Source of the DNA: Nitrospirota bacterium
GTDB lineage: Bacteria > Nitrospirota > UBA9217
Assembly: GCA_963740085.1 (NCBI GenBank)
Contig: CAVUCU010000005.1
Span: 416,001-480,000 of the forward strand
DNA length: 64,000 nucleotides
Direction of reading: 5' to 3'
How positions within the stretch are numbered: position 1 is the stretch's first letter; each line of letters opens with the position of its first letter. The translations under genes and the position numbers were made by a program. Below, piece by piece: positions 14,471-46,703 of this stretch. The notes below the pieces were generated by a model. It ran no database searches and was not told where the DNA came from. It saw only the letters and a list, made by a program, of their open reading frames with translations.

Positions 14471-14471
14471 A

Positions 14472-15173: not shown

Positions 15174-15213
15174 AGGTAATACTCCTTTATGAAAAGCTCA
15201 TTTGCATAAGCCG

Positions 15214-23347: not shown

Positions 23348-24214
23348 TCACGACCCCGACCTTGTCCGGAGCGGCTTCTGGTAAACCATATCGTTTTTAA
23401 GCGTGCGAAGCACGAACGCGTTCGAGATGTTGATCAGCGATTCAGAGTGTCCGAGAAGCAGGTAGCCGCCTTCGCGGAGCTTGCCCGAGAAGCTCTCGAT
23501 CACTTTTTTCTTGGCTTCTTTGTCGAAATAGATGATCACGTTCCGGCAGAATATGATGTCCATGTTGCTGATCAAGTTGGCCTTGAGCGGATCCAGCAGG
23601 TTCAGGGAGCTGAACGAAACGAGTTCTTTGACCTTATCAACGATCCGGTAATTGCCCTTGTCCTCTTCGATGAAATACTTCGCGAGCATTTCGGGGCTCG
23701 TCACGCGGTGAGCGCTCGTCTTGTACACCCCCTTGCGCGCCGTGTGCAGGACCCGCTGATTGATGTCGCTGCCGAGGATCTCCACCTGCCAGTTGCGCCA
23801 CCAGTCCCCGGATTCGAACAGCAGCATGGCGATGGTGTAGGGTTCCTCTCCCGTGGAGCAGCCGGCGCTCCAGATCCGAAGGGCCTTCCGGTCGGAAAGT
23901 CGTTCGCGCAGTTCAGGGAGGATCTCCTCTGAAAATGCACGGAGTTGCGGACTTTCCCGGAAAAAGTAGGTCTCATTCGTGGTGAGATTGTCCACGAGAA
24001 TGGTGAGCTCTTCCTCCCGCTTCCGGTCATAGCGGAGGAAGTGGTAGTACTCCTCAAAGGTCTTGAGATGATGCTGCTCAAGCCTGCGCGAAAGCCGGCG
24101 TTCAAGAAGGAACTTGGACGCATCGTCAAAAAATATCCCGCAGTAGCCGTGGATAAAATCCCGAAGGAGCCTGAACACATCGTCCGGCAGCGGAATGGTC
24201 TGCTCTTCAAACAT
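23348..24214 (-). CDS. cheR: Chemotaxis methyltransferase
   Basis: TTNETYFFRE, IWSAGCSTGEEPYT, IFCRNVIIYF and LGHSESL motifs. Confidence 0.97.
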   Translation of the reverse strand: MFEEQTIPLPDDVFRLLRDFIHGYCGIFFDDASKFLLERRLSRRLEQHHLKTFEEYYHFLRYDRKREEELTILVDNLTTNETYFFRESPQLRAFSEEILPELRERLSDRKALRIWSAGCSTGEEPYTIAMLLFESGDWWRNWQVEILGSDINQRVLHTARKGVYKTSAHRVTSPEMLAKYFIEEDKGNYRIVDKVKELVSFSSLNLLDPLKANLISNMDIIFCRNVIIYFDKEAKKKVIESFSGKLREGGYLLLGHSESLINISNAFVLRTLKNDMVYQKPLRTRSGS

Positions 24215-26209: not shown

Positions 26210-26732
26210 GACCCGCCTCCGCCAACGCTGAGCGCTCCTGCTGGCTCAGGATCTTCGTGATGTCGATGAGGATGATGAGCCGGTCTCCCACCTTGCCCAT
26301 GCCGGTTATAAACCCGGCAGACTGACCCTTCGCGGCCTCCGGCGCCGGCTCAATGTCTTTCCCGGGAACATGGAGCACTTCCTGCACACCGTCCACCACC
26401 AGCCCGAGCAGCGCCCCCGGCGTTTTTCCCGATGCCCCAGGAATGGCTCCCTTCGTGATCAGCATGCGCATTTTCCTCGGATCATCGACTATCTGGGAAA
26501 GGGCAAAACGCTTACGCAGGTCTACGATCGGGATGATAACGCCGCGAAGATTGACTACGCCCTCTATAAACTCCGGCATTCGAGGAAGCGGAGTGATCTT
26601 GAGCGGACGGACCGCCTCGGTGATGAACCTGATTCCCACGCCATACTCCTCACTGCCGACCCTGAACGTGACGAGCTGGACCGTGTCGTCGACCAAGGCT
26701 ATCTTTTTCTCTTTTGACCACATGCTTTTCAC
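26196..26732 (-). CDS. cheW: CheW coupling protein
   Basis: QLVTFRVGSEEYG, GVVNLRGVIIPIVDLR and GLVVDGV motifs; start uncertain (GTG 26732 or ATG 26723). Confidence 0.93.
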   Translation of the reverse strand: MKSMWSKEKKIALVDDTVQLVTFRVGSEEYGVGIRFITEAVRPLKITPLPRMPEFIEGVVNLRGVIIPIVDLRKRFALSQIVDDPRKMRMLITKGAIPGASGKTPGALLGLVVDGVQEVLHVPGKDIEPAPEAAKGQSAGFITGMGKVGDRLIILIDITKILSQQERSALAEAGHAGY

Positions 26733-26867
26733 AACCCTTGCCCCCTGACCATGATGAGCCGGGACCCCTGTGAGAGATAACACCCACAGCCATAGAGGTA
26801 CGTGCTCACAGACCCGTCAACCGATTGCTCAGCCATCCCGAACGACCACCCGTACCCCTCGCTCCCC

Positions 26868-29003
26868 TCACACATGCTCAGTCCTGAACTTCGATATTTC
26901 CTTATTGAGCGATTCCGACTGTTTGGCCATCACATCCATGGCCACGTTCAGGCTCGCCGCCAGGTCTGCGTTCGATCTTGCGATTTCCTTGATGCGCTCG
27001 ATCGACTTTACAATGAGGTCGCTTCCGGCCTGTACTTCGCCGGCGGCCCTGTTCACCATGCCGATCTTCGCGCTCATGTTCTCGACCGCAGCGGAAATAT
27101 CCTTGCTTCCCCTTGCCTGTTCATCCGTTGAGGTCCTGATAAAGCGCGTGAGCTCGCGCATTTTTTCCGATGACCTCGTGATCTGCTCGCTGCCGACCTT
27201 CTGCTCATTCACGGCCTGGCTTATCTGATGCGTCATCTCATTTATCTTGTCGACAGCATCGCTTACCTGCCTGACGCCCCGGACCTGCTCTGTCGCTGCC
27301 TTGTTGATGCTCCTGCTCATGTCCCGAGACTGGTCAGCGCGTTCAACGATCTTCTCAAGAGCGCCGCTGGCATCTCGGGCAAGCCGCACCCCCTCCTCCA
27401 CCAGCGAAACCTCTTCCCGCATAGCCCCGACCGACTCGCGGGACTCCTCCTGCACCGAGGTGATCAGCATTCCGATCTCCTTCGTCGAAGCGGCGGTACG
27501 ATTCGCCAGTTCGCGGATCTCGGCCGCAACCACCGCGAACCCCTTGCCATGCTCGCCTGCCTGTGCCGCGAGGATGGCCGCATTCAGCGCAAGAAGCCCG
27601 GTCTGGTCGGTAATGTCCTCGATGACGGTCAGGATGCTGCCGATGTTCTCCGCGCGCTCTCCAAGGCGGTTCACCACATCCGCGGTTCGGCGCGCCGTGG
27701 ATTCGATCCTGCTCATGCCTTCAATGGTCTTCTCGATGGAACGCATTCCAAGCAGTTTGGCGTCCGAAGCAACGGCTTCGGCCAGCGAGGTGGACTCCTT
27801 CGCATTAGATTCCACCTCTTTCACGGATGCGCTGATCTCGGTCGCCGTGGCCGCCGTATCTTCCGCGGCCGATGAAAGCACTTCAAGGTTCTCCGCGATC
27901 TGGCGGACCGCGGCGGACATCTGAATGATGGCGGTGGACGTGTCTTCAATGGCGGTGGACAGTTGCACGATGGTTTTTGCGACCTCATCGCTCGATGCCG
28001 CCATCTCGATCACCGATGAGGAGGTCGTCTCCGAGTGCGCGTACAGGTCTTTGACATTGTTTGCCATCTCTTTAAGCGAGAAGTGCATTTCATTCACCGA
28101 GGACGCCACCTCTTCCACTGCCTCAGCCTGGCCTTTGCTCCCGCCGGTGATCTCCTGGGAGGTCCCCTTCACCTCTCCCCATATTGCGGCTGTTTTGTGG
28201 GCCGCCTCCCGCACGCTCTCGATCATGCCCTTGAGCCCAATGATCATGCGGTTAAGGCCGCGCCCGAGCATCCCGAGCTCGTCGATCGACCGCACGTGCA
28301 CTCTCTGCGAGAGGTCCCCTGCAGCGATGTTCGAGGCCACATCCATCGCCTCCTTTGTAGGCAGAACGATCATCCTCCGTATCATAAGGTAGACCATCAA
28401 GGCGAGGGCGCTTACGATCAGCGCGCTGGTTCCGAGAAGCAGCCAAACCACATCCCTTGCTTCCTTCCGGACCGCTGCACGTGAAAATCCAATCCTGACC
28501 ATGCCGATGCGAGCGTCGCCGTTCTTGACATCAACCTGCACCTCAACGGGATCGAGCTTCTCTTTCGCCTTCGCCGCGAGCGTTGCCGCGTCTTCGATTT
28601 TTCCCGGCGCGAGGAGTTCCTTCATTTCGGGATGGCCGAGGTTGAAGCTGACGGGGACAGTATTCAGGATCACATTCGACGAGTCCGCCATATAGGCGTA
28701 AAGGATGTCCGGGGCCTTCGCTGTTTCCGCGACAAGACCGTCGAGCGCTGGGATGTCCCGGTGCAGAAGTGCATCGGCGCCGGCCCTGCCGAGAAGCTGA
28801 CCCACTTCACGGCCCCGCGTTTCCAACGCCCGATACTGCTCGTCCATCAGCGTGCGCGCGACAAAAAAAGTACCCGCCACCATGAGCACGATAACAGCGA
28901 CCATCAGCGCGAACATGATCTTAAGCCCAATCTGGGTGTCAATACGGTCCTTAAGCGCCTTTCCCTTCCCTTCCTGAAAGAACCTTCTTATCATGCTTAG
29001 CAT
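26868..29003 (-). CDS. Methyl-accepting chemotaxis protein (2 TM, small periplasmic domain, HAMP, long signalling domain)
   Basis: [34 protein letters not shown] hairpin; start ATG 29003 follows GAGGTG. Confidence 0.95.
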
Positions 29004-29010
29004 ATTTTCA

Positions 29011-31041
29011 TCACCTCGCCCCCTCAATTCCGGCGCTCTCCTTCGCCTCGGACGTATTCATCGCGCCAATCTCCCGGTCGAGTAGTTCCGCCTGCTCTCC
29101 AAGGGTCTTGAGCGCGACGGACATACCATCGACGCGAGTCACGTTCTGGCGCGGAAGGTCCTGGATCCGCGCCATGGACTCCAGAATCTGACCGATGGCC
29201 TGCCGCTGCTCACGGCCGCCCGCAGCGATCTTGCCGGCCCTCATGGTGACGTTATCGGCTGCCACCGCGATCTGCTTGCCACCCCGGCCCTGCTCAGCCA
29301 TGGCGGTCCGCACCTGACGCGCGATGGTGCGCATTTCCTCGGCAGCGCTCAGGATATTCTCCGTACCCCTGGTCTGGGCCTGGGTCGCCCCGGCTATCTG
29401 TTCCATCATCTGCTTGACGTTCATGACGGCCTCGCTTACCTGTTTGATGCCCCGGTGCTGCTCGTTCATGGCCCGTTCTATCATGGTGGCCATCTCCGCC
29501 GAGCGGTTCGAGCTCGCAAGGATCTTGTCCAGCGCAGCGCCGGCCTCCTGAGAACGCCGCACGCCTTCTTCCACGGCGGTGAGACTGCCCGACGTGGCGG
29601 TCACGGCCTCTTTGGCCTCGCGCTGCACCGAGGCGATGAGCTTCCCGATATCCTGGGCTGAGCCGGCGGTGCGGTCGGCCAGCGCCTTGATCTGCTCGGC
29701 CACGACGGCGAATCCCTTGCCGTGCTCGCCTGCCTGGGCCGCGAGGATGGATGCATTCAACGCAAGCAGGTTCGTGCGCTCCGTCACCTCGACGATCACG
29801 CCGAGGATCTTGCCGATCTCTTCCGAGCGCTTCCCGAGACTCGTGACCGTGTCGGCATACTTCCCGACCGTTTCTTTGATCGCATCAATGGCGCTGATGG
29901 TCGCATGAATGGACTTCACGCCGATGTCCTGCGCCTCCCGGGACACCTGCTGCGACAATCCGGTCGACTCCTTGGCAGCCCGCTCCACCTCCCGCACCGT
30001 GGCCTCGATCTGGACCGCCGAAGCCGAGGTCTCCTCGGCCGCCGAGGAAAGGCTCTCGACATGGCCGGCCACTTCGCGGATCGAAGCGATCATCTCGGCG
30101 ACCGACGTGGTCACGTCCTCGACCGACGAGGCGAGTTCGGACGTGTGGCTGGCGACCTCTTGATTGGAGGCGTTCATTTCGAGAATAGCTGATGACGTTT
30201 CTTCCGCCGAAACCGACAGGCTCTCAGCGCTTTCAGCAATGGACTGGATGGATGAAGACATCTCCGTAACCGATGAAGATACGCTCATCGTGGCCACGGA
30301 CTCAATTTCGGCATTTTTTTTGATCTCCAGCGCGTCCGACGTGATCGTCGGGCTCAACTCGCTGATCCGCGTGGAAATGGCGCTCATTGCAACGACGAAC
30401 TGCTCGAGATGCGCCATCAGGTCGTTTACGCTGTTCGCCAGGCCTCCAATCTCATCACGTCCCTGCATATCCACACGAAGGGTAAAGTCCTTTCGGTCGA
30501 TCACCTCTTTCAGCGCTTTGCTGAGTTCTCTGGCCGGCGTTGTAATGGTACGGGACACGGAGACGAACAGGATCCCCGCAAGAAAAACGAAGATAAAGAG
30601 ATATTCGTAGAGCGTTCCCGGGATAACGGCGCCGAGCCTGCCTTCCGGTGCCACTGGATATACGGCAAGGCGGACCTCGCCGAGCTTCATGGTGTCCTTG
30701 AGGACCGGCTGTGACCTTATGACGATCCGGTCCTTCTCCAAAACCGGCCTGGCGATGTGGATGAGCTCTCGTCCCTCGCCGTCGACAATGGTTATTTCCT
30801 GAGCAGTGGGCGCGTGGATGAAAGGTTCAGCCATGGTCTGGAGTCCGCTGAGATCCGACCTCAGCAGATAGGGCGCAGCCAGCTCAGCCATAAGCTTGCC
30901 GGACTGCTCGCCCTGGACGCGGACATCGGCAATGATGTCGCGCTTCTCAATAAAATACCGGGTCGTCCCTATCAACCCCATGATCACGAATAACCCCGAA
31001 AATACCAGAAAGATAAGTCTCTGTCTTATGCCACTACCCAC
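29011..31041 (-). CDS. Methyl-accepting chemotaxis protein
   Basis: [34 protein letters not shown]; 2 TM + HAMP. Confidence 0.95.
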
Positions 31042-31209
31042 AATTCCTCCTCTGTTCGATCAGAGCTCCGCGACAAACGAACGGAGATGATGCCGAGTCA
31101 CAATTTTTTGTCTGTTGTCTGCCTCTCGGATGCCCTGCCTGTTTGATCGCCTGCTCTTTGACCGTCTGTTGTCCTGAAGGCCTGAAGTCTGATCGGCAGT
31201 CATCAGCCC

Positions 31210-31372
31210 TCAGAGCTTAAAGCCATCCAGTTCCGGATGGAGCCTCTGCGTGCTGCTTGAATGTCTTCACGGCCTTCTCCTTTTCGATGGGTACATCCAC
31301 CGTGTCCCCGGTGATCCTCTGAATGCGGGTCATGGCATCGCTGAGATTCTTTACGGACTCTCGCAGATTCAT
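31210..31372 (-). pseudogene. Internally deleted MCP remnant (start + C-terminal tail only)
   Basis: ATG overlaps the SBP stop (ATGA). It reads MNLRESVKNLSDAMTRIQRITGDTVDVPIEKEKAVKTFKQHAE, then after a frameshift LHPELDGFKL*, matching the end of MCP 32412-34508 (RDAMSRIQKITKETVDVSSEMDVAVKELKQKADTLQSELKGFKF). Confidence 0.8.
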
Positions 31373-32295
31373 TTGATGACCTTCGTTGCATCTGTGATCA
31401 GATCAAACGGCACCTTGATTCCGAGCGCTCCCGCCTCCCTGAGGTTCAGCACCAGTTCCACCTGTTTCGGGAACTCCACCGGCATGCCCTTGGGGTTCTC
31501 ACCCCTCAGTATCCGCGCGGCGATCTGCGCCGCCGCCGCCCCCTGCTCCGTCGCGCTCGGCGCAAGGCTGAGGATCACCCCGTGTTCTGCCGTGCCGCCG
31601 GTCTGGCTGATCGTAAGGACCTTTGCGTCGTGCGCGGTTTTCACCATAACGTCAATCGCCTCATTCACCACCGCGCTTACCGAGATAAACACCGCGTCCA
31701 CCTTTCCCGTGAACACCAGCTTCCTGGCATCTTCCGCCCTCTTGACCGGCATTTTGACCGTCTGGAACCCGTACTGGCCCTCAAGCCGCGTCAGTTCGTT
31801 CGCCTGCAGCACCGAACCGGGCTCCGGCTCACTGTAAACGACGGCAAGCCTGGTAAAGGGCGTGATCTTCCTTGCATACTTCAGCAGGCTTGCCATCGGC
31901 ACAGCGGAGCTGATACCGGTGACATTCTTGGCCGAGACGCCCACTGCGTTCGGATCGTAGACTCCGGCGAAGACGATCGGAATGCCTTTCGCCTCCCTGA
32001 TCGCAGCCAATGCGGCGGGCGCGCCGTAGGTCACCAGCACGTTCACCTCGGCAACCGCCATCTTGTGTGCCGCATTCGTCCAGGACAGTGGGTCAGGGGA
32101 CGGCATCTGCAGGAAGGTGTCGACCTTGGTCTGATCGAACCCCTCCTTTACCAGTGCCATCACGAAGGCCTTATGCATTTCCTGATACTGTCCGATATTC
32201 CCCGACATAATTACACCCACGGTCCTCTCAGCCGCCGCGACCGGGGCAGCGAAGCAGAGGAGCACTGCAAATACTATCCAACTCCGTTGTCTCAT
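31369..32295 (-). CDS. Periplasmic substrate-binding protein (ABC_sub_bind-like), copy 2
   Basis: Signal peptide (..APVAAA); IPIVFAGVYDP, NVTGISS, QG..AAQIAARILRGENPKGMPV and LVLNLREA..LGIKVP motifs. Confidence 0.85.
   Translation of the reverse strand: MRQRSWIVFAVLLCFAAPVAAAERTVGVIMSGNIGQYQEMHKAFVMALVKEGFDQTKVDTFLQMPSPDPLSWTNAAHKMAVAEVNVLVTYGAPAALAAIREAKGIPIVFAGVYDPNAVGVSAKNVTGISSAVPMASLLKYARKITPFTRLAVVYSEPEPGSVLQANELTRLEGQYGFQTVKMPVKRAEDARKLVFTGKVDAVFISVSAVVNEAIDVMVKTAHDAKVLTISQTGGTAEHGVILSLAPSATEQGAAAAQIAARILRGENPKGMPVEFPKQVELVLNLREAGALGIKVPFDLITDATKVIK
31428..31807. repeat. ~380 bp exact direct repeat, copy 2
   Basis: Identical by eye to 34564-34943 (offset 3136). Confidence 0.85.
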
Positions 32296-32411
32296 AATCC
32301 CTCAAGCTATCATTTCACATAATAGTGGTTGGAAAAGGCTTACACCTCGACATTCGGATCTTTCACTGTCCCTCGAGGTCGATACTGGTCACTTTCACGA
32401 ATCCCGGGTGT

Positions 32412-34508
32412 TTAGAACTTGAAACCTTTCAGCTCCGACTGGAGCGTGTCAGCTTTCTGCTTGAGCTCCTTCACAGCCACGTCCATCTCACTTGACACAT
32501 CCACGGTTTCCTTGGTGATCTTCTGAATGCGGCTCATGGCATCTCTGATCAACTGCGCTCCCAGACTCTGCTCCGAGGTGGAGCGGGCGACCTGAGACGC
32601 CTGCGCAGTAACGGATTCAAGGGCATTCGCGATCTGCCTGCTGCCCGTGGTCTGCTCCCGGGTAGCGGACCTCACCTGCCGGGTGATGTCACGCATCCGC
32701 TCCGCCGCCTGTACGATCCGTTCGCTCCCTTTGCGCTGTTCCTGTAACGCGCTGGCGATCTGCTCCAGCTGTTCCGAAATACTGAGGGAGGTCTCGGTGA
32801 TCTGCGCTACACCCTTGGCCTGTTCCGCCGTGGTCTTTTCGATGGCCCGCGCCATGCTCGCGGACTGCCGCGAGCTGTCCGCTACCTGTTCGAGCACGTT
32901 ACTGGTCTCATTCACCAGATCAACGCCGCGCTCGACTGCCTTGAGCCCTCTGCCCATTGCCTGCACGCTCTCGGCGGTCTCTTCCTGAACCGATGCGATG
33001 AGGCCGGCGATCTCCTGAGTGGATGCGGCAGTACGCTCCGCAAGGTCCTTGATCTCCTCGGCAACGACCGCGAACCCCTTGCCGTGCTCACCGGCCTGCG
33101 ACGCGAGAATGGCTGCGTTCAGGGCCAGCAGGCTGGTCTGGTCCGTCACTTCATCGATGACCTTCAATATCTGTCCGATCTCGTGCGACCGCTTCCCAAG
33201 ACGGTTCACCACCGTAGCGGTCGCCTCGACGGTCTCCTTGATGTTCTGCATGCCTTTGATCGCTTCCTTGGCGGCGGTTATTCCGCGCTCCGAGGCGTCA
33301 AGAGCGACTTTTTCCGCCAGGCTGGCCGATTCGACGGCGCGTTGTTCGACCTCCTTTACCGTTGAGCTCATCTCGGTAATGGATGATGAGGTCTGCTCCG
33401 CTGATGCGGAAAGCGCGTCGGTATTCTCCGACACTTGCTTGATCGAGGCGATCATCTCCTCGATCGATAACGCCGTATCTTCAGCGGCTGCTGCAAGCGC
33501 CCCCGAATTACTGGATACCTCTTCGATCGACGATGCCATCTCTGTTGCCGAGGACGACGCGTCCGTGGCGGACCTGGACATCTCCCCGGCGTTCTCGGCA
33601 ATGCCCTTGTTCGACGCGACCAGCTCATTCACGGTCGTCGCGGTCTGCTCGGTCCCTTCCTGCTGCACCCTGGCGCCCTCACTCATCTTGACCGTGGCGC
33701 CGCTCATGAGTTTCATGGCGTCGGCCAGCCCCGTACCCGTCGATATGATCTTGCCGAGCATCTCCCGGAGGTTCGACGACATCGTATTAATGGCGCGGCC
33801 AAGTTGGGCGATCTCGGTCTCCCCCTTGACGGCAAGCTCCCTTGAGAGGTCCCCCGCCGCCATCAGGCGTGCGGTCTGCAACATCTCGATGATGGGCCTC
33901 GTGATCCCCCGATCAATGAAAAAAGACACCAGGACAACAGCGGCCAGATAACTGATGAACCCCACGACAAGGGACCAGAGAAGCAGGCTCCTGACCTGAC
34001 TGTTCACGGCCTTCTCGGCGAGCGCTATCCGGAAGACGCCGATCTTTTTTCCGTCCGGCGCCTCGAGGGGAATGACCTTTTCATAATGTCCCCCTCTCTT
34101 ATTGGAATAGTACTGCACCATAGGCTCGTTCGCGGCAAGGGCCTTCTTTCCCGACTCATCGCCCGGAACGGTGTTCTCAAGGCTCCGGTCGGCGGCGTAA
34201 AGCACCTTGCCATCGGCGTCCATGATCATCACGCTTGAGAGATCGCGGTCTGTTCCCATCATCGCCCGCAGCTTGTCACCCATCCCGTCGAGCGCGCTCA
34301 ACGGGATACCGAATCCGATTGCCTTTGCGATGTCCTTCCGGGTCCCCTCCGCGAGAGCGGCGGTCCGCGCAATGAGCGCGTCACGATATTTGCTCGTGGC
34401 CACGGAGATATTGACGAACGTATTTACGGCTATAACCAGAAAGAGGATGACGGCGGTGGCCACCATGGCCCGCGTTTTGAGGTTCATGGATGATAATCGT
34501 ATTTTCAT
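32412..34508 (-). CDS. Methyl-accepting chemotaxis protein (single-Cache-like sensor, ~64-heptad signalling domain)
   Basis: [34 protein letters not shown]; about 448 aa follow the HAMP domain. Confidence 0.95.
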   Translation of the reverse strand: MKIRLSSMNLKTRAMVATAVILFLVIAVNTFVNISVATSKYRDALIARTAALAEGTRKDIAKAIGFGIPLSALDGMGDKLRAMMGTDRDLSSVMIMDADGKVLYAADRSLENTVPGDESGKKALAANEPMVQYYSNKRGGHYEKVIPLEAPDGKKIGVFRIALAEKAVNSQVRSLLLWSLVVGFISYLAAVVLVSFFIDRGITRPIIEMLQTARLMAAGDLSRELAVKGETEIAQLGRAINTMSSNLREMLGKIISTGTGLADAMKLMSGATVKMSEGARVQQEGTEQTATTVNELVASNKGIAENAGEMSRSATDASSSATEMASSIEEVSSNSGALAAAAEDTALSIEEMIASIKQVSENTDALSASAEQTSSSITEMSSTVKEVEQRAVESASLAEKVALDASERGITAAKEAIKGMQNIKETVEATATVVNRLGKRSHEIGQILKVIDEVTDQTSLLALNAAILASQAGEHGKGFAVVAEEIKDLAERTAASTQEIAGLIASVQEETAESVQAMGRGLKAVERGVDLVNETSNVLEQVADSSRQSASMARAIEKTTAEQAKGVAQITETSLSISEQLEQIASALQEQRKGSERIVQAAERMRDITRQVRSATREQTTGSRQIANALESVTAQASQVARSTSEQSLGAQLIRDAMSRIQKITKETVDVSSEMDVAVKELKQKADTLQSELKGFKF

Positions 34509-35437
34509 TTGAGCACCCTCGTTGCATCCGTGATCAGATCAAACGGCACCTTGATTCCGAGCTCTCCCGCCTCCCTGAGGTTCAGCACCAGTTCCACCTG
34601 TTTCGGGAACTCCACCGGCATGCCCTTGGGGTTCTCACCCCTCAGTATCCGCGCGGCGATCTGCGCCGCCGCCGCCCCCTGCTCCGTCGCGCTCGGCGCA
34701 AGGCTGAGGATCACCCCGTGTTCTGCCGTGCCGCCGGTCTGGCTGATCGTAAGGACCTTTGCGTCGTGCGCGGTTTTCACCATAACGTCAATCGCCTCAT
34801 TCACCACCGCGCTTACCGAGATAAACACCGCGTCCACCTTTCCCGTGAACACCAGCTTCCTGGCATCTTCCGCCCTCTTGACCGGCATTTTGACCGTCTG
34901 GAACCCGTACTGGCCCTCAAGCCGCGTCAGTTCGTTCGCCTGCCGAACCGAATCGGGCTCCTGCTCACTGTAAACGACGGCAAGCCTGGTAAAGGGCGTG
35001 ATCTTTTTTGCATACTTCAACAGGCTCGCTATGGGCACGGCGGAGCTGATACCGGTGACATTCTTGGCCGAGACGCCCACTGCGCTCGGATCATAGACTC
35101 CGGCGAAGACGATCGGAATGCCTTTCGTATCCCTGATCGCAGCCAGGGCTGCGGGCGCGCCGTAGGTCACCAGCACGTTCACCTCGGCAACCGCCAGCCT
35201 GCGCGCCGCATTCGTCCATGACATCGGGTCAGGGGAAGGCATCTGCAGCAACGTGTCGACCGTACGATGGTCAAATCCCTCTTTTACGAGGGCGGCCTCA
35301 AATGCCTTGTGTATTTCCTGATAGTATCCGATGTTGCCCGACATGACCACACCCAGGGTCTTATCCGCTGCGGGGACCGGGGTCGCCACTAAGAGCAACA
35401 CGGCGATCAGTATCCCTTGCATTCGTCTCATGGCCAT
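34505..35437 (-). CDS. Periplasmic substrate-binding protein (ABC_sub_bind-like), copy 1
   Basis: Signal peptide; paralog of 31369-32295; stop overlaps the MCP start (ATGA). Confidence 0.85.
   Translation of the reverse strand: MAMRRMQGILIAVLLLVATPVPAADKTLGVVMSGNIGYYQEIHKAFEAALVKEGFDHRTVDTLLQMPSPDPMSWTNAARRLAVAEVNVLVTYGAPAALAAIRDTKGIPIVFAGVYDPSAVGVSAKNVTGISSAVPIASLLKYAKKITPFTRLAVVYSEQEPDSVRQANELTRLEGQYGFQTVKMPVKRAEDARKLVFTGKVDAVFISVSAVVNEAIDVMVKTAHDAKVLTISQTGGTAEHGVILSLAPSATEQGAAAAQIAARILRGENPKGMPVEFPKQVELVLNLREAGELGIKVPFDLITDATRVLK
34564..34943. repeat. ~380 bp exact direct repeat, copy 1
   Basis: Identical by eye to 31428-31807. Confidence 0.85.
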
Positions 35438-35442
35438 TCCCT

Positions 35443-37371
35443 CTACCATTTAAAGGCCATGGTGGCCAGTAAGATATTGACCCTGCCGTCCTGAGTATTA
35501 TCGATCTTGTCGTCATAGCGACGCTGTTGATATCGGAGATCGCCGCTCATGCGTTTTCCGAACTGCATTTCCAAACCCACGGTATAAATGTCCTCGACGA
35601 CATTCAGATCGGAAATGGTGTCGATGTCCGTGGTGTTGGGAACAGAACCATCAATTCTGAAGTTGCCCTTGGAGTAGATTTTATTTGCATCTGCGCTCAA
35701 CGTTATGCCCTCTCCGAATGCCTGGCTCACGGACAGCGAGAAGACCTCCGCTTTATCCCCGTAGGGCACGCCGTTCTCCAGGTTGAACATTCCTGCCGCA
35801 TCCGTGAAGCTGAGGGTTTCCGTTGTTTTATTTTTCAAGTATAAGAAGCTCCCCGTAATAGAGGTGCCGTCGCCCACCAGAAAAGTGACGCTGCTGAGCG
35901 CCTGGTCGCGGTCGGACTTTCGACTGCCTCCGGCAAGCGGCGCCGCCAGATCGTCACGTTTTTCCCGGACCCCGCCATAGCTCGCCAGCGCGATGATATG
36001 CGCGGTAGGCGTCCAGGTTGCTGTGGCCTTTGCTTGATTGACCCTGTCCGGATCATCCGCATATGCCGGATTCGTGATCTGCATGGCGCTGTAGTCGGCC
36101 CTCAGGAAAAGCTTGCTCATGACCCGGTAGGTAATGCCGATCTTCTCGGCACTTTTCAGGGTGTGGTGGGCGACTTCCCAGTTATTCGGCCCGGTCCCTG
36201 TCGACACAGGAAACAACTCGATTGGCATTAAATCCGCGCCATGCCACACATCGCGCTCGACTGTATCAACCGTATATTCAGCCTTGGCCGTCATCCTCTC
36301 GCTCAGTCGGTACCGAATAACGCCGGACATGACATCTCTCTGCGATGAAATGGAATCGCGTACGCTATAGGTAGCCCCAAGACCCGTGAGCGTAACCGTG
36401 TCCGGGTTATTGACGCTAAGATCATAATGACGAAACTTGAGGGCGAGCACCAACCCCGCAACAGGTGTAAGCGTCAGATCGGCTGCCGCGTTATGAAAAT
36501 TGGCTTTTGTACCGCTGTCCTCATTCTTCTTCTCCCCGGATGAATAGGTGGCTCCGGCGACTAACCGGCCGGTGAGCGAAGTGTGGACCTTCACGGTGTC
36601 GGATGAGGATTTGAGGTCGGGGACCAGGTTGTGCGGAACGGTGAAGAGGGCGTAGTCGTCGTAGAGAACCCGGTCAACGCCGCGGGATTCAAATTTCTTT
36701 TCCGCATGGCTGTAATCGAACTCAACGGGTCCCAAGTGGCTGTTGACGCCCATACGGACCTCCCGCGTGCCCCAGTCGATGTCCCGCGACTGCGAAACCA
36801 GGTCAAGACCGCCGGTAAAACCGCGCATGAATCGCTGCTGGATGGTCCCCTCTCGCTCAAGGGTCGTCACGTCTGCGTACAAGTGGAAGGGGAAGTCGGG
36901 TGTCTTGAAGCGGATGAACGCCCTTTTTAACTCGTTCTCGACCGCATACTGATCATCCGGGTTCAGGTCAACAAAGCTCGGCGACGGCGTCGTCAAATTA
37001 TCCGGCCCGAACGTGTAGTGTTCAAGGTTATGGTACATCCCGCGCGTGTACATGTTGAACAGCACGACGTCCCGAAAAGCGTAATTCATTTCGCCGAAAT
37101 AATCCTTTCGATTTAGATAATAGGATTCCAGAGAGAGACGTTGCGGGAGGGGAGTCCATTCGAGGTCGAGTGCGCCGCCGGCCGACGACTTGAGATACTC
37201 GTATTCTCCTGCACGAGGATTGCGGTCAGGTGACACGTTGCTGTAGCCTGCACTGATCCGTGCGTTGAATTCCTCCAGCGATTCCGGGGTCTGCTCGTCC
37301 GCCGCCTGCTGTGCCGCGGCCGGGAAGGCCCAGAGCATAAGAAACAACAGAATGATCATGTTCTTTTTCAT
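35443..37371 (-). CDS. MtrB/PioB-like outer-membrane beta-barrel of a porin-cytochrome complex
   Basis: Sec signal (AFPAAA), RAGEYEYL near the N-terminus, alternating amphipathic strands and C-terminal ..MAFKW; immediately follows a decaheme cytochrome gene. Confidence 0.8.
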   Translation of the reverse strand: MKKNMIILLFLMLWAFPAAAQQAADEQTPESLEEFNARISAGYSNVSPDRNPRAGEYEYLKSSAGGALDLEWTPLPQRLSLESYYLNRKDYFGEMNYAFRDVVLFNMYTRGMYHNLEHYTFGPDNLTTPSPSFVDLNPDDQYAVENELKRAFIRFKTPDFPFHLYADVTTLEREGTIQQRFMRGFTGGLDLVSQSRDIDWGTREVRMGVNSHLGPVEFDYSHAEKKFESRGVDRVLYDDYALFTVPHNLVPDLKSSSDTVKVHTSLTGRLVAGATYSSGEKKNEDSGTKANFHNAAADLTLTPVAGLVLALKFRHYDLSVNNPDTVTLTGLGATYSVRDSISSQRDVMSGVIRYRLSERMTAKAEYTVDTVERDVWHGADLMPIELFPVSTGTGPNNWEVAHHTLKSAEKIGITYRVMSKLFLRADYSAMQITNPAYADDPDRVNQAKATATWTPTAHIIALASYGGVREKRDDLAAPLAGGSRKSDRDQALSSVTFLVGDGTSITGSFLYLKNKTTETLSFTDAAGMFNLENGVPYGDKAEVFSLSVSQAFGEGITLSADANKIYSKGNFRIDGSVPNTTDIDTISDLNVVEDIYTVGLEMQFGKRMSGDLRYQQRRYDDKIDNTQDGRVNILLATMAFKW

Positions 37372-37383
37372 GTTCGAGCCTCC

Positions 37384-38391
37384 TTATTGTGTGAACCTGC
37401 CCTTGCCGCTCGGCGAAGGCAGGTCCGTACCGTGTATCTGTGAATGACAGTCCGAGCACCGGGTATAGTACGCCTGCTTGGTCTCTGCGGTCGTCGCGCC
37501 GCTGATCCGGTGAGAAGGGTGACACTGCAGGCAGAGAAACGGCTCGCGCAGAATGAGCAGGTTATTATTCACCGAGCCGTGCGGGGCATGACACGCGCGA
37601 CAGTCCTCATTGATGTCCGCATGGTCATACACGAATGGGCCTTCCTTTTCCGGATGGCACTGCGTGCAGGTGGCTTTCACCGTGTCCTTCTTCAGGTTTT
37701 TTTCGGCGCTGCCCCCATGCGGGTCATGGCAGTCAGTGCAGAATATCTTCTTCTCCGGCACCGGATGATGGTTCGGCAGCAGGAAAGCGGCTTTAATATC
37801 CTCGTGGCACTTCTCGCACATTGCAGCCGTGTCCCTGAGCTTCACCTTCAGGTTGTGGCTCCCGTGGATCTTATGACAATCGGAACAAGACACCTCGGCC
37901 AATGAGTGCGTGCTTGCGTTCCAGTTGTGCAGGTTAAAGGTTGCGTTTGCTGAGTGGCATTTAAGGCAGATGAGCGACTTGGCCTGCGCCGGCAGCGTAT
38001 TCAAGTCAAGGAATGTCTTGAAGTCGCACGCGGTCTTCTTGCCGGCCGCCGCATCGGCTGCGATCCTCTCGGGCGTCAGCGGCTGTACGGCGAGGCTCCC
38101 CGGGCCGTGACAGCTCTCGCAATTCACGAGCGGCAGGCCGGACTCTCTCGACAGCTGCGCACCCATGGTCGAGAGATCGAAATCCCGCCTGATCTTGTCG
38201 TGGACATGGCAGGCCTTGAGGCAGTTGTCCGTGCCGATATAGTCCGCGTCCAGCCGCCCGGCTATCATCTTTTCGTACTCTTTCATCGGCAGGATCGGCC
38301 TCGATTCCTTGAGCGCCGCACACCCCACTGCAAAGAAGGCCCCGAGCATTCCAATTGCCAGCCATTTTTTCCATTTCTCGAATTGTTCCAT
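37384..38391 (-). CDS. MtrA/DmsE-like decaheme c-type cytochrome, probable lipoprotein
   Basis: 9 CxxCH + 1 CxxxCH (CLKACH); MtrA-like CESCHGPGS, HHPV.E, CTDCHDPHG, EKEGPFVYDH and CSDCHSQIHG; FAVGC lipobox. Confidence 0.9.
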   Translation of the reverse strand: MEQFEKWKKWLAIGMLGAFFAVGCAALKESRPILPMKEYEKMIAGRLDADYIGTDNCLKACHVHDKIRRDFDLSTMGAQLSRESGLPLVNCESCHGPGSLAVQPLTPERIAADAAAGKKTACDFKTFLDLNTLPAQAKSLICLKCHSANATFNLHNWNASTHSLAEVSCSDCHKIHGSHNLKVKLRDTAAMCEKCHEDIKAAFLLPNHHPVPEKKIFCTDCHDPHGGSAEKNLKKDTVKATCTQCHPEKEGPFVYDHADINEDCRACHAPHGSVNNNLLILREPFLCLQCHPSHRISGATTAETKQAYYTRCSDCHSQIHGTDLPSPSGKGRFTQ

Positions 38392-38421
38392 GTATCTTAA
38401 CCTCCATCGCTTCAGTGTGAG

Positions 38422-40350
38422 TTAGGGTCGTTCCGCGGACGTGCCCGGGGCGCCGTACAATAAATAGCTTTTCGCACCTGTGCACCATGACGGGGGTGAA
38501 CTGTTGCAAAGGTTGGCGAGAGTACTGCCGACCGAATAGTTCATCTGCCCATCATCAAGCCAGTCAAGGGAATCATAGATGACCCTCTTCGCGTACCTGC
38601 TGTTATGGACATAGGCACCCGGCTCATGATGGAGGAGACTGAAGTTGAAGGTCGCGCCCATGGTGTGCTTGCCGCCCGAATTGCCCGATATGTCCATATC
38701 ATTGAATATCAGCCAGTTATTGCTGGTGAAATAAGGGTATGCGGCCGTAAAGGAATAACTGGGACTGCTCACGAGCAATTGGTTCTCGAGCGCCGCCATA
38801 GCAAAATCAAAATTATCCTTCTCATCCTGAACAACAAGACCGAAATCGATGCTTGAGCCCGCATGGCATTTAAAGCAGACCTCGCTGGTTACTACGATGG
38901 TGCCCGTTAGATTGCTGATCGGCTGGAAAAGGTGATTGCCGGGCATGCCGGACCGGTCCATGTGGCATCCGATGCAGGGGCCCGTCGTGCCTGTCCCCGG
39001 TTGAACAGGCGTGCCGATTTGGCTGTGCATATAGGTAGCTGGGTCCGCGTAGTTCCTGCCGGCATATTCATAAGCCGTCCCCTGGAACATGGTTCCAGCC
39101 GCGGTCAAGTAATGGCCGTCAACATTGCTGTACTCGTAACTGCTGAAATTCACGGTCGCGGTCTGCCCGGTGTTCAATTGACCGATCGCTTTGCCACTGA
39201 CGCGGCCGGTATGGCAGGTCATGCAGACATTAGAAGCCCCGACGTCGGGATATTGAAAAGTTGCGACTGTATTTGGAGCGTTCCCGATTGTGTATGTCGC
39301 TTTGTATGCCCCGGGGTTCCTCAGCGTGCCGTGATTGTCACTATGGCATCCTTTGCATTCCAACATCTCGGGTTTAAAATTCAGATTGGGCGAGAGCGGC
39401 GGTGCGCTGCCGGTACTGATTGCCTCGGCCAGCGTCGCGTTCCCGGACTGCAGGGCATCGGCATAAGCCGCAAAGCCAGTAGTGGTGTGGCACCGCTGGC
39501 ATGCGGTTCTTGAGCCTGAGGCACCATAGCAAGTCGTATCACATGACCAGTTATAATGAGCCCAGGCATTTTCGGCGGCAAGATCTGCATGTTTCGAATT
39601 TGCCCATTCTTTATTGATATCAGCCTTCTTGTGCGGATTATGGCAGTCCGTACAAACCGTTGCGTCCTCGAAATTCATGGCGTAGCCGGTTATCTTTCGC
39701 GCATTGGCAGAAAAGTCGCTCCCCCAAATGCCTGGCGTGGCAAAGTGGGTATCCGTTATCGTGTACTCGTTGCCCGTCGGCGTTACGCTACTCGCCGGAT
39801 CATGGAGTGTCGCGACAGTTCCCGTTCCCGACGAATCAAGCAACTGATGACAATTCGTGCACAGGATAAACTGGCCGGAAACTGTCGTCGAACCGATTGA
39901 AGCCGACGTGTACGTACCGGAAAGCAGCGATATCGCTCCTGCCCCGCCGCCATTTGCGTGCAGGCTGCCGCCCCCGTGACAGGCTTCACACCCGATCACG
40001 GGACGGGGAACATTGCCGGTATAACCCGCGGTGAGGTTCATGCTATCCCCGTTCGGGTCATGACAGCCCGCGCATTCGGACGTAACCTGTGCGCTCGTCG
40101 GATACCCGGGACTGTACAGCGTCCCGCCGGGGCCGAGATTCGCGTGTTTGCTCGTAAGCCAATCGGCCGTCACCGCGGTATGACAGCCCGCACAGACATT
40201 GATGCCTGCCATGGTTGCCGAACTAAGCGGGACGGTTTCTGCCGGGGCTGTCGATTTTTTTTTCGAGTTGCCGCATCCGGCGAGCAGGGCAACCGCGAGG
40301 AACAGAACCGGCAGTGCCAATATGTTGTGGTGTCTTTTGTGATCCATCAT
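38422..40350 (-). CDS. Decaheme lipoprotein cytochrome c, OmcB/OmcC-like
   Basis: LLAGC lipobox; 10 CxxCH; C-terminal EPGAYVHNSRYAKRVIYDSLDWLDDG recalls the Geobacter OmcB family. Confidence 0.85.
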   Translation of the reverse strand: MMDHKRHHNILALPVLFLAVALLAGCGNSKKKSTAPAETVPLSSATMAGINVCAGCHTAVTADWLTSKHANLGPGGTLYSPGYPTSAQVTSECAGCHDPNGDSMNLTAGYTGNVPRPVIGCEACHGGGSLHANGGGAGAISLLSGTYTSASIGSTTVSGQFILCTNCHQLLDSSGTGTVATLHDPASSVTPTGNEYTITDTHFATPGIWGSDFSANARKITGYAMNFEDATVCTDCHNPHKKADINKEWANSKHADLAAENAWAHYNWSCDTTCYGASGSRTACQRCHTTTGFAAYADALQSGNATLAEAISTGSAPPLSPNLNFKPEMLECKGCHSDNHGTLRNPGAYKATYTIGNAPNTVATFQYPDVGASNVCMTCHTGRVSGKAIGQLNTGQTATVNFSSYEYSNVDGHYLTAAGTMFQGTAYEYAGRNYADPATYMHSQIGTPVQPGTGTTGPCIGCHMDRSGMPGNHLFQPISNLTGTIVVTSEVCFKCHAGSSIDFGLVVQDEKDNFDFAMAALENQLLVSSPSYSFTAAYPYFTSNNWLIFNDMDISGNSGGKHTMGATFNFSLLHHEPGAYVHNSRYAKRVIYDSLDWLDDGQMNYSVGSTLANLCNSSPPSWCTGAKSYLLYGAPGTSAERP

Positions 40351-40437
40351 CGTTTACACCTCCACTATTTAAATGCGGATATTGAATGTTCGGGAAAATA
40401 CAGCCCGGTCCACAACCCGCATTCCGAAATCCGAAAA

Positions 40438-41115
40438 TCACACGCCCAGGACCTTTTCCAGGTCCAGCAGGATATACAACCTGTCAGCTGTCCTCACGAT
40501 GCCGCGCAGGAACTCCGCCCCCTGCTCGATGTTTTCCGGCACCGGCTTGATCTCTTCGGAAAGAACCCTGAACACCCCCGTAACCCGGTCCACCAGGAGT
40601 CCCGCCTCTTCGTCAGCGGAACTGGCCACAACGATCCTCGCTTTTTCGTCCTTCGTGGCCTGCGCAAGACCGAGCCGCTTGCAAAGGTCGATGACGGGCA
40701 GCACTGTTCCCCTGAGCGTCATGACACCGAGGATATAGTCAGGCGAATTAGGCACGATCGTCAAACGATAGTTCTTCAGGACCTCCCGCACATCCGCTAC
40801 CAGAACGGCATATTCTTCGCCGCCAAGGCGGAACGAGAGCAGTTCGATCTCCTGCTGCGGCGTTTCTTCCCGATCGCGAGTGGAGGATGCGGGAACCTCC
40901 TCGGTCGCGTCGGGAGGCGCCTCACTCGCCGGGGCAGCGACTGCTGCAACCGGAGACCCGACGACTTCCACCGGCGCGCTGCCCGACTCGGGGGGAATTG
41001 GCGGCAATGTCTGTTCCGGCGCCGGCGGTGCTGCTGGCGTTTCTACTTCCTGTGCCGGCTTGACCGCTGCACCCGCCTGTTCGGCGGCCTTCTTTCGCGC
41101 TGCAAGAATATCCAT
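40438..41115 (-). CDS. cheW: CheW with Pro/Ala-rich N-terminal extension
   Basis: ELLSFRLGGEEYA, GVMTLRGTVLPVIDL and GLLVDRV motifs; start ATG 41115. Confidence 0.92.
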   Translation of the reverse strand: MDILAARKKAAEQAGAAVKPAQEVETPAAPPAPEQTLPPIPPESGSAPVEVVGSPVAAVAAPASEAPPDATEEVPASSTRDREETPQQEIELLSFRLGGEEYAVLVADVREVLKNYRLTIVPNSPDYILGVMTLRGTVLPVIDLCKRLGLAQATKDEKARIVVASSADEEAGLLVDRVTGVFRVLSEEIKPVPENIEQGAEFLRGIVRTADRLYILLDLEKVLGV

Positions 41116-41235
41116 GTCGCGTTCGCTCCTACTTAGTATCCACGACAGACGACGAAGGACCGTTCGTCCTGCTCGCCGAGACAATGGACGCCTTTTCGTC
41201 TGCCGTCCGTCGTCCCTCGCCTGTCGTACCTTCCA

Positions 41236-42033
41236 TTAAACCCCATCGTGAACCACGCTCTCTATGATCTCCGGACCGATGATCTCGGCCGACCGCCCGA
41301 ATCCTTCTACCAGTGCGTTGCCCGCGATGGTATTGATTCGGCGGGGAATGCCTTCTGAGTGTTCGAACAGGAGCGCCAGCGCCTCATCATCGAACAGCGG
41401 CTCCGACCTGCCGGCAACCTCGAGCCGGTGCCGGACATAGGCCTGAACCTCTTCGGCGTTCAACGGACCCAGATGATACTGCATCCCGATGCGCTGGCGG
41501 AGCGCCCGGTACGGCTTCCTGCTGAGACGCTCCCGGAGTTCGGTCTGGCCGATCAGCACAAGGGCCAGGAGATTGCGATCGTCGAGCTGAAAGTTCGTCA
41601 GGAGCCTCAGCTCCTCGAACGTGGTCGTTCCCGGGATGAGCTGCGCCTCGTCTATGATGATCACCGGCTGTCTTCCCGCCTCGTACAGTTCATAGAGCTT
41701 CGCATTAATTCCCTCGAGAATGTCGTGCCGGTACCGGCCCGCTTCATCCATGCCGAGGCGCAATGCCACTGTGCGCAGGAGCTGCGACGGGGACAGCCGG
41801 GGGTTGATAATGAGTAGCGGGTGATAGCTCTCATCCAGCGAATCGATGAAGGCGCGGGAGAGCGTGGTCTTGCCCGATCCGATCTCGCCGGTGAGCATGA
41901 CAAAGTCCTGCTCCTCCACGGCGTGCAGAAGCCGAGCGAGTGCCTCCGCGTGCTTTGGACTGTGATAGAGGAACCGCGGGTCCGGCGTTTTATTAAAAGG
42001 TCTCTCCCTCAGTTTATAAAATTCTTTATACAT
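41236..42033 (-). CDS. ExeA/GspA-family AAA ATPase (no C-terminal membrane/peptidoglycan-binding part)
   Basis: MYKEFYKLRERPFNKTPDPRF, GEIGSGKTT, IIDEAQ, LIGQTEL and SEGIPRRIN motifs. Confidence 0.9.
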   Translation of the reverse strand: MYKEFYKLRERPFNKTPDPRFLYHSPKHAEALARLLHAVEEQDFVMLTGEIGSGKTTLSRAFIDSLDESYHPLLIINPRLSPSQLLRTVALRLGMDEAGRYRHDILEGINAKLYELYEAGRQPVIIIDEAQLIPGTTTFEELRLLTNFQLDDRNLLALVLIGQTELRERLSRKPYRALRQRIGMQYHLGPLNAEEVQAYVRHRLEVAGRSEPLFDDEALALLFEHSEGIPRRINTIAGNALVEGFGRSAEIIGPEIIESVVHDGV

Positions 42034-42122
42034 GCATTTTCAGAAGACCGCGGTCAGATGACCGGTTAAGGCCAACATGACCGATCTGGCCTGTCTCCTG
42101 ATTCCCGTCTCCTGTCTTCCGA

Positions 42123-44135: not shown

Positions 44136-44236
44136 TGAAAATTGGAAATTGGAAAAGGTAAATTGAACATTATAAAACTGCAGCAGTCCAAACGGATTTT
44201 CAATTTATCTCTTCGCAATCTTCAATTCATTCCAAT
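44136..44236. repeat. Heptamer (AAATTGG/CCAATTT-type) inverted repeat element
   Basis: aaattggaaattggaaaaggtaaattg ... caatttatctcttcgcaatcttcaattcattccaatt. Confidence 0.6.
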
Positions 44237-45822: not shown

Positions 45823-45851
45823 GAATTCTCCCGAAAAAATAAAACTTCGAA

Positions 45852-45879
45852 ATTATATCAGTTTAAGCGAATAATGCAA
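45852..45879 (-). promoter_or_regulatory. sigma70 promoter of the chemosensory operon
   Basis: TTGCAT-N16-TATAAT with extended -10 TGn. Confidence 0.6.
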
Positions 45880-46685: not shown

Positions 46686-46703
46686 GGCAAACCTCCTGTG
46701 AAT

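Follow-up and report, generated by a model that had tools for sequence, protein, structure and literature searches.

A conserved gene unit of cytochrome conduit, binding protein and membrane sensor within a Nitrospirota chemosensory operon

Why would a chemosensory operon enclose the genes of an electron conduit? The question is raised by a stretch of DNA from a Nitrospirota bacterium (contig CAVUCU010000005.1, positions 416,001 to 480,000; 64,000 nucleotides, hereafter the window), in which 20 co-oriented genes run uninterrupted along the minus strand from 45822 down to 20886, as delimited by open reading frame (ORF) calls and matches to Pfam and NCBIfam. The run is a chemosensory (Che) operon enclosing a surface decahaem lipoprotein, a decahaem cytochrome of the MtrA/DmsE family, an MtrB-like barrel, two substrate-binding proteins (SBPs) of family PF04392 and three methyl-accepting chemotaxis proteins (MCPs). 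A preliminary description of this DNA had listed the genes of the run, and every one that it named is present, on the minus strand and in the order given. It had also proposed that the conduit is the sensory input of the pathway. The part of that proposal that stands is the linkage of conduit, SBP and sensor as a unit, which our survey of related genomes upholds and a predicted MtrA-SBP complex favours weakly. Gene content, family assignments and conserved linkage are established; the direction of the signal, its redox nature and its relay by the SBP, like every other mechanistic step, are what we infer.

The genes at the centre of the question are the following.

38422-40350, minus strand: omc, a surface multihaem lipoprotein of 642 aa (10 CXXCH motifs; lipobox LLAGC)
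37384-38391, minus strand: MtrA/DmsE-family decahaem lipoprotein of 335 aa (TIGR03508; nine CXXCH motifs and an N-terminal CX3CH)
35443-37371, minus strand: predicted MtrB-like outer-membrane barrel of 642 aa (AlphaFold2 (AF2) and Foldseek; no CXXCH)
34505-35449, minus strand: SBP1, an orphan periplasmic binding protein of PF04392 (Pfam, 121.5 bits; signal peptide; no cysteine)
32412-34508, minus strand: MCP1 (two transmembrane segments, sCache_3-like periplasmic domain, HAMP, MCPsignal at 143.5 bits)
31369-32295, minus strand: SBP2, a recent duplicate of SBP1 (88% protein identity)
31217-31372, minus strand: MCP remnant of 51 codons, corresponding to the C-terminal end of MCP1 (DNA match to MCP1)

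These genes are closely packed. The barrel starts 12 nt after the mtrA stop, and SBP1 and MCP1 have an ATGA in common (34505-34508), as do SBP2 and the remnant; both spacings had been described before and are borne out. The longest SBP1 ORF extends 7 nt into the end of the barrel gene, and the 5-nt gap reported earlier holds if translation starts at the ATG at 35437. A pattern scan of 26500-46300 gave no convincing intergenic terminator on the minus strand inside the run, the matches sitting in coding sequence; this is compatible with a single transcript rather than evidence for one. The absence of a quinol oxidase alongside, as first described, extends across the whole window, where only two ORFs carry at least two CXXCH motifs and no protein of the NapC/CymA or cytochrome b type turned up when the other ORFs were scanned with Pfam.

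Conserved linkage of conduit, binding protein and sensor

Is the arrangement a peculiarity of this genome? We searched with a barrel profile and obtained 38 loci on species-representative contigs, one genome per species. The ORFs of each locus were compared with the window's 20 proteins, and Pfam was run on 15 sensors or neighbours and on 53 plus-strand ORFs from 14 loci. Thirty-five loci bear Nitrospirota-lineage labels, and one each is labelled Betaproteobacteria, Desulfobacteraceae and Thermodesulfobacteriota. Four loci (L017, L021, L022, L030) end within the barrel gene, leaving 34 in which the next gene can be evaluated.

The linkage to ABC_sub_bind (PF04392) and MCP or kinase genes, put forward in the preliminary description as the point to survey, is clearly positive. 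A PF04392 SBP directly follows the barrel in 33 of the 34 evaluable loci (two of them by tblastn only), and of the 29 loci whose sequence extends far enough beyond it, 28 continue with a membrane-sensor gene in the same orientation. The sensors are of two types: 24 are MCPs with an sCache_3-like periplasmic domain and HAMP, and four are histidine kinases (L031, L016, L024, L033). Junctions are short throughout, with an overlap or at most 20 nt between barrel and SBP (25 of 30 measured loci) and a 4-nt overlap between the SBP and MCP genes (14 of 19). The SBP stays linked while barrel identity drops to ~30% and SBP identity to 36%, and it is linked in the loci labelled Desulfobacteraceae and Thermodesulfobacteriota as well. 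These counts support the view that conduit, SBP and sensor form one functional unit.

The company that the unit keeps is equally consistent. ABC-ATPase motifs occur in one of the 513 ORFs in the 38 loci, and that one is not beside any SBP; what is found is thus a secreted SBP beside a membrane sensor with no cognate ABC transporter, the arrangement of SBP-dependent sensors. Judged by CXXCH count, none of the 38 loci encodes a quinol dehydrogenase or periplasmic carrier in cis, and besides the omc and mtrA homologues a single ORF (L015:2-1210) has at least two such motifs. The kinase of L031 carries an MCP1-like periplasmic domain and is followed by genes for response regulators with GGDEF and with GAF-HD-GYP outputs. 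In four loci (L016, L024, L025, L033), a PhnD-like SBP (PF12974) lies between the PF04392 SBP and a HAMP-GAF kinase; in L016, this pair of PhnD-like SBP and kinase is itself duplicated.

The loci fall into two forms. In 17 (L001-L014, L034, L037, L038), the unit is embedded in Che genes on every side with sequence, at barrel identities of 38-92%. These loci keep MCP3 and MCP4, and the surface cytochrome is present in 13 of the 15 that span the cheW-mtrA position, L010 and L012 being those that lack it. In the other 21, the module stands alone, at barrel identities of ~30-38%, and its flanks are housekeeping genes that vary from locus to locus (such as HflX, haem biosynthesis, HrcA-GrpE-DnaK, ScpA, Nuo); a 6-haem protein lies upstream of mtrA in three of them. 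We built an MtrA tree from the window and 31 loci, leaving aside the seven whose mtrA is absent, partial or broken (L014, L025, L031, L032, L034, L037 and L038). Its 14 Che-embedded rows fall into a single clade (SH-aLRT 99), indicating that the nesting arose once and was retained. To judge from these sequences, the mtrA-barrel-SBP-sensor unit is an older and more general entity than its Che-embedded form.

Two features of individual loci deserve mention. L002, which bears the Betaproteobacteria label, is Che-embedded and nests in the Nitrospirota clade as sister to L006, which suggests a mis-binned or mislabelled metagenome-assembled genome (MAG) rather than gene transfer. In L003, L014 and L037, all long-read MAG contigs, cheA, MCP4, the barrel gene and mtrA are split into 2-4 ORFs; these are probably assembly frameshift errors and not real pseudogenes.

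Proteins of the conduit and their possible partner

How closely does the conduit resemble known ones? The MtrA-like protein scores 238.3 bits against TIGR03508 (DmsE-family decahaem; cut-off 192.2), and in the PDB it matches 6r2q_A, chain A of the solved Mtr complex, over residues 52-326 (E 1.5e-39). In an alignment of the window protein with 27 orthologues (28 sequences), the lipobox that ends its signal peptide, G23-C24, is invariant in 28 of 28. All ten haem-binding motifs are present and equally invariant: the first is CX3CH (C57, C61, H62), a variant of the usual motif, and nine CXXCH follow. Canonical Shewanella-type MtrA is a soluble periplasmic protein with no lipid anchor, whereas the protein here is predicted to be lipid-anchored through Cys24. 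The ~30 residues between the anchor and haem 1 are highly conserved among the 28 sequences, and we take this conserved N-terminal part to be the end that faces the periplasm in 6r2q.

The barrel matches no Pfam family at E<=0.01, so the PF11854 (MtrB/PioB) model is not matched; in precomputed annotation, that model is carried by 20 of 120 listed barrel relatives. An AF2 model of moderate quality (pLDDT 64.6, pTM 0.57) is almost entirely beta-strand, and its top Foldseek match in the PDB is 6r2q_B, the MtrB chain (E 8.8e-11 over 633 columns, with a TM score of just 0.38). The barrel profile, run against PDB sequences, returned nothing meaningful (best E 0.71). The surface cytochrome has Pfam matches to Cytochrome_C7, C554 and Paired_CXXCH, and by sequence it finds cytochrome c554 alone in the PDB, weakly. 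Its look-alikes by language model, which are leads rather than tests, are Nitrospirota clusters with an MtrC/MtrF domain (0.98) and an OmcB-family cluster (0.96). A fold search with this protein was dropped, its AF2 model (13 sequences) being too poor (pLDDT 39.7).

Like MtrCAB, MtoAB and PioAB of Shewanella, Sideroxydans and Rhodopseudomonas, the locus thus combines an MtrA/DmsE decahaem cytochrome with a barrel gene 12 nt downstream and a surface multihaem lipoprotein upstream. It differs from them in the lipidated MtrA with its CX3CH and family-specific N-terminal segment, in a barrel outside PF11854, in the orphan SBP and membrane sensor that almost always follow, and in lacking any cis-encoded CymA, MtoD or quinol dehydrogenase. 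The surface cytochrome, moreover, is optional here, missing from L010, L012 and most stand-alone loci. The nearest named pair is OmcK/OmcL (GSU2203/GSU2204) of Geobacter and syntrophic sulfate reducers, likewise a cytochrome with an MtrB/PioB-type barrel. The window's proteins are not members of those families, since the MtrA-like protein scores 231.3 bits against NF041028 (GSU2203 family; cut-off 325) and the barrel 125.2 bits against NF041027 (GSU2204 family; cut-off 350). The GSU2204 family is named for CXXCH, whereas the window's barrel has none. By tag numbers alone, GSU2203/2204 lie 16 locus tags from esnB (GSU2220).

SBP1 has 3lkv, 6hni and 3lft as its relatives in the PDB. Solved PF04392 proteins bind L-Trp, L-Tyr or L-Phe (PMC10443332), and the clefts of these proteins therefore accept aromatic rings. 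MCP1 scores 21.5 bits against sCache_3_2, below the cut-off, and orthologues in which the MCP stands alone reach 36.9-49.1 bits. Seventeen longer SBP homologues are all tandem SBP repeats; none is fused to a sensor or cytochrome domain, a blank that is weak evidence.

The second binding-protein unit is a copy of the first. Over 912 nt, the DNA of the SBP2 unit is 91% identical to that of the SBP1 unit. The short ORF behind SBP2, which the preliminary description had called an MCP remnant, is indeed one: 135 nt of its DNA align with the 3' end of MCP1 at 73% identity. The pair is a recent tandem duplicate of SBP1-MCP1 from which most of the MCP has been deleted; the duplication is in none of the 38 related loci. 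The difference between 91% and 73% suggests that the SBP copies have undergone gene conversion or that selection on the remnant is relaxed.

Could the SBP contact MtrA? We folded residues 25-335 of the MtrA-like protein with residues 28-314 of SBP1 as two chains, on our own alignments, so that the calibration counts hold roughly. In that calibration, 116 of 157 solved complexes reach the mark, as do 2 of 215 mismatched pairs, and scores past it of 0.60 or less come from 18 of the 157 solved complexes and from both passing mismatches. The contact had been suggested in the preliminary description, and the pair does pass the mark, in the weak band only: three runs gave 0.57, 0.56 and 0.58, against 0.11 for the best of three controls. 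Partner pLDDT is 90 and at least 80% of contacts agree between runs, and no interface was returned. We know of no solved complex of an SBP with a multihaem protein that the model could have memorised. The predicted fold offers weak support, and raises the odds modestly.

A possible sensory role and its alternatives

What might the unit do? A constant trio of MtrA, barrel and SBP, swappable transducers, tight junctions, no transporter for the SBP, no respiratory partner in cis and varied genomic contexts together amount to the signature of a module for sensory input, as opposed to a respiratory operon. We judge it an even call that the unit is a modular trans-envelope sensor in which conduit, binding protein and sensor act in that order. 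Its core would be a lipid-anchored MtrA/DmsE decahaem cytochrome, an MtrB-like barrel, an orphan PF04392 SBP and an inner-membrane sensor with a periplasmic domain, HAMP and an MCP or kinase output. In the window's lineage, the module would operate within a non-flagellar operon resembling Che7 and the beta group, together with a surface decahaem lipoprotein and two more MCPs. The haem chain of surface cytochrome and MtrA would equilibrate with extracellular redox material, such as iron or manganese minerals, humics or partner cells. Through its lipid anchor, MtrA would have its periplasmic end tethered to the outer membrane, which makes a diffusible SBP a plausible messenger to the inner-membrane sensor, and the SBP could read the state of that tethered end. 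With neither a cysteine nor a cofactor motif, the SBP would have to report docking that depends on redox state, its own sequestration in the way that YfiB captures YfiR, or which redox form a small redox-active ligand is in. It would then modulate the sCache-type MCP and, through it, CheA, with adaptation by CheR and CheB. Output through CheY, PATAN-GAF and HEAT proteins would probably reach c-di-GMP, matrix or surface behaviour, and not flagella. The more specific version, a dedicated electroreceptor whose outer-membrane haem wire takes up the redox state of external minerals, humics, electrodes or partner cells for the SBP to read and pass on to MCP and Che, to a kinase or to c-di-GMP enzymes, strikes us as somewhat short of an even chance.

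Individual parts of such a relay have precedents. MBP-Tar, LuxP-LuxQ, TorT-TorS and YfiB-YfiR-YfiN likewise set a secreted binding protein, with no transporter of its own, beside a membrane sensor, and YfiB, an outer-membrane lipoprotein, captures periplasmic YfiR. The proposed sensor differs from these relays in that its outer-membrane partner would be a haem wire inside a barrel, and to our knowledge no trans-envelope relay uses a cytochrome conduit. The comparison with YfiB and YfiR is of working principle only, there being no sequence relation to either; a match of MCP3 to HK_near_YfiR_like was rejected as evidence of a YfiN-type sensor at 43.8 bits (cut-off 194), since it spans only the second transmembrane segment and HAMP.

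In Shewanella, the mtr and MCP genes are unlinked, and their coupling is thought to be indirect, through metabolism; here, by contrast, conduit and MCP genes adjoin, are apparently translationally coupled and are joined by an SBP. Congregation of Shewanella at minerals requires mtrBC/omcA as well as an MCP with a Cache domain (PMC5789149), and components of both kinds are present in the module here. In literature searches, no earlier paper came up that ties an Mtr-type conduit to a binding protein together with a chemoreceptor or kinase. Two surveys of Mtr and porin-cytochrome evolution (PMC8805035, PMC12133095) make no mention of chemotaxis, sensor, substrate-binding, histidine kinase or Nitrospirota, PMC8396549 has none of the terms sought, and the available text of PMC10553843 mentions no SBP or sensor linkage for OmcKL.

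Several points weigh against a sensory role. The 17 Che-embedded occurrences form a single clade and are therefore not independent, and the survey was confined to barrels in which two peptide patterns are retained, in one genome per species. Within it, L028 has mtrA and barrel with neither SBP nor sensor, and L020 has an SBP with no adjoining sensor. SBP1, having no cysteine and no cofactor motif in its sequence, cannot carry redox information itself, and by analogy with its family it may simply sense a solute. A fold score of 0.57 sits in a band that is more often wrong than right unless the pairing is likely beforehand. The established role of the DmsE/MtrA family, of which the MtrA-like protein is a bona fide member, is electron transport. 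OmcK/OmcL, for their part, are up-regulated on the iron oxides hematite and magnetite (PMC4070692) and have been proposed as a conduit for extracellular electron transfer and direct interspecies electron transfer in syntrophic sulfate reducers (PMC10553843).

These last observations speak for the main alternative, which we hold to be on the unlikely side: that the conduit is a respiratory or electron-uptake wire of the OmcKL/MtoAB type, the SBP-MCP pairs sense solutes independently, the Che pathway serves matrix or colonisation, and co-location reflects co-expression on surfaces. The MtrA-like protein's score above the TIGR03508 cut-off and its match to 6r2q_A fit a wire, as do the aromatic amino acids that are the known PF04392 ligands (PMC10443332), the need for esnB/esnC in electrode colonisation (PMC5585712) and the reported regulation of extracellular matrix by cluster 5 (PMC2577667). 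Co-expression, however, leaves unexplained why the SBP is held to the barrel in 33 of 34 loci while sensor type and flanks change, and the stand-alone modules contain nothing further to co-regulate. Nor does a wire account readily for the lack, in cis, of a quinol dehydrogenase or periplasmic carrier in the 38 loci and of an ABC transporter for the SBP, and the MtrA-SBP fold, past the mark, counts weakly against it. Conduit function and sensing, it should be said, are not mutually exclusive.

Less probable again is a non-signalling SBP that acts as a structural accessory of the conduit, for docking, assembly, stabilisation or as an adaptor for an electron carrier, with the sensors doing something separate such as controlling conduit expression. 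The barrel-SBP junction is the tightest and most conserved of the unit (overlap or <=20 nt in 25 of 30), the fold lends weak support to an MtrA-SBP contact, and in L016, L024 and L033 a second, PhnD-like SBP stands between the PF04392 SBP and the kinase. Yet in 14 of 19 measured loci a 4-nt overlap ties the SBP gene to the MCP gene as well, the window's lineage duplicated SBP and MCP jointly, and canonical Mtr, Mto and Pio conduits do not require a protein of this kind. As for hitch-hiking, in which a conduit cassette was inserted once into a Che operon by chance and with no functional meaning, we give it hardly any credence. The single origin of the Che-embedded form in the MtrA tree is what such an event would leave behind, but the form persists, with intact genes, in 17 species-level loci whose barrels have 38-92% identity to the window's, and the mtrA-barrel-SBP-sensor unit recurs outside the Che clade, in other genomic contexts and further lineages. 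The survey thus contradicts the one-off insertion that the preliminary description had named as the finding that would speak against it.

Were the trans-envelope sensor borne out, it would touch on a gap in what is known of microbes at surfaces. Shewanella and Geobacter need both chemosensory genes and outer-membrane cytochromes to locate or colonise minerals and electrodes, and no physical link between the two is known; by joining an MtrAB-type conduit, an SBP and swappable sensors, the module turns such a link into a concrete hypothesis about a small set of proteins. A true electroreceptor would be the first molecularly defined means of sensing insoluble electron acceptors or donors without respiring them, and a new use of porin-cytochrome complexes. 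It is routine to take MtrA and MtrB homologues, in Nitrospirota and in anaerobes related to them, as markers that an organism respires or oxidises iron. If a subfamily is sensory, inferences of iron metabolism from metagenomes will need revising.

The chemosensory backbone and the remaining genes

What kind of pathway would receive the signal? The other genes of the run, and the convergent gene that adjoins it, are as follows.

44620-45822, minus strand: DUF4388 (PATAN) and GAF protein, first gene of the operon (PF14332, 114.9 bits)
44237-44623, minus strand: cheY1, a CheY-like receiver (Response_reg, 98.8 bits; 4-nt overlap with the DUF4388 gene)
42123-44135, minus strand: cheA histidine kinase (Pfam Hpt, H-kinase_dim, HATPase_c, CheW)
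41236-42033, minus strand: ExeA-like AAA_22 ATPase, between cheA and cheW1 (AAA_22, 83.3 bits)
40438-41184, minus strand: cheW1 (Pfam CheW, 125.1 bits)
29011-31041, minus strand: MCP3 (periplasmic domain with no Pfam family, HAMP, MCP signalling domain)
26868-29027, minus strand: MCP4 (periplasmic domain with no Pfam family, HAMP, MCP signalling domain)
26196-26783, minus strand: cheW2 (Pfam CheW, 117.2 bits)
24215-26209, minus strand: HEAT-repeat protein (HEAT_2, 326.3 bits in 9 stretches)
23348-24214, minus strand: cheR methyltransferase (Pfam CheR, CheR_N)
22237-23316, minus strand: cheB methylesterase with receiver (Pfam CheB_methylest, Response_reg)
21281-22108, minus strand: coiled-coil and GAF protein (Pfam GAF_3, GAF_2, GAF)
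20886-21266, minus strand: cheY2, a CheY-like receiver, last gene of the run (Response_reg, 98.9 bits)
19731-20813, plus strand: RlmN-like gene, convergent neighbour of cheY2

By Pfam, the Che pathway is complete, with CheA (Hpt, dimerisation, ATPase and CheW domains), CheW, MCP, CheR and CheB. The ExeA-like ATPase scores 241.5 bits against TIGR03015, under the cut-off of 324.5, and the GAF_2 match of the DUF4388 protein is weak (23.5 bits; cut-off 28.6).

The operon had been likened at first to a Geobacter alpha-group (Che5) cluster, a label that is wrong. Tran et al. (2008) place cluster 5 of G. sulfurreducens in the beta group, common to myxobacteria, and define the alpha group by a stand-alone HD-domain gene (PMC2577667); Pfam finds an HD domain in no gene of the run. 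By gene content, the backbone resembles the Geobacter beta group. Like Geobacter cluster 5/Esn and Myxococcus Che7, the operon has cheA, an ATPase, cheW, cheR, cheB, extra CheY-like genes and a HEAT protein. Geobacter cluster 5 presumably corresponds to GSU2212-2224. Within it, GSU2220 is CheW (esnB), GSU2221 an ATPase and GSU2222 CheA (esnC) (Chan et al., 2017; PMC5585712), and the window's ExeA-like gene, between cheA and cheW, occupies the position of GSU2221. Myxococcus Che7 has been tied to a HEAT-repeat protein (PMC9040617, citing Darnell 2014). The likeness has a limit: beta-group clusters hold no mcp genes (PMC2577667), whereas the window's operon contains three intact MCPs and a remnant, two SBPs and the conduit.

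The relatives point to an output other than flagella. Functions of cluster 5/Esn and Che7 are non-flagellar, in matrix, electrode colonisation and development; esn mutants (esnB/esnC) fail to colonise electrodes (PMC5585712), and there is preliminary evidence that cluster 5 controls extracellular matrix (PMC2577667). In the window, residues 58-110 of the DUF4388 protein match an MshEN-like c-di-GMP-binding motif (NF053729, 41.1 bits; cut-off 38), a hint that c-di-GMP may feed into or out of the Che pathway. Together with the GGDEF and HD-GYP genes of L031 and L026, this motif in the operon's first gene suggests that the pathway acts on c-di-GMP or surface behaviour. A DUF520 (YajQ-family) gene and lolA lie directly upstream, in the orientation of the operon (46188-47439). 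Binding of nucleotides or c-di-GMP has been reported for YajQ proteins, and LolA is the carrier for outer-membrane lipoproteins, the class to which both cytochromes here belong.

The rest of the window holds Wood-Ljungdahl and housekeeping genes. The Wood-Ljungdahl set at 1394-17310 comprises subunits of acetyl-CoA synthase/carbon monoxide dehydrogenase, corrinoid protein subunits, a pterin-binding methyltransferase and methylenetetrahydrofolate reductase with its C-terminal partner, alongside HdrA/MvhD-like and NuoF-like proteins, and marks the organism as an acetyl-CoA-pathway anaerobe. Between 54000 and 62000, GC content falls from ~0.57 to 0.34-0.50, and the genes, some apparently truncated, encode a ketoacyl synthase, a short-chain dehydrogenase/reductase, an acyl carrier protein and a methyltransferase; this segment may be a horizontally acquired lipid or polyketide island.

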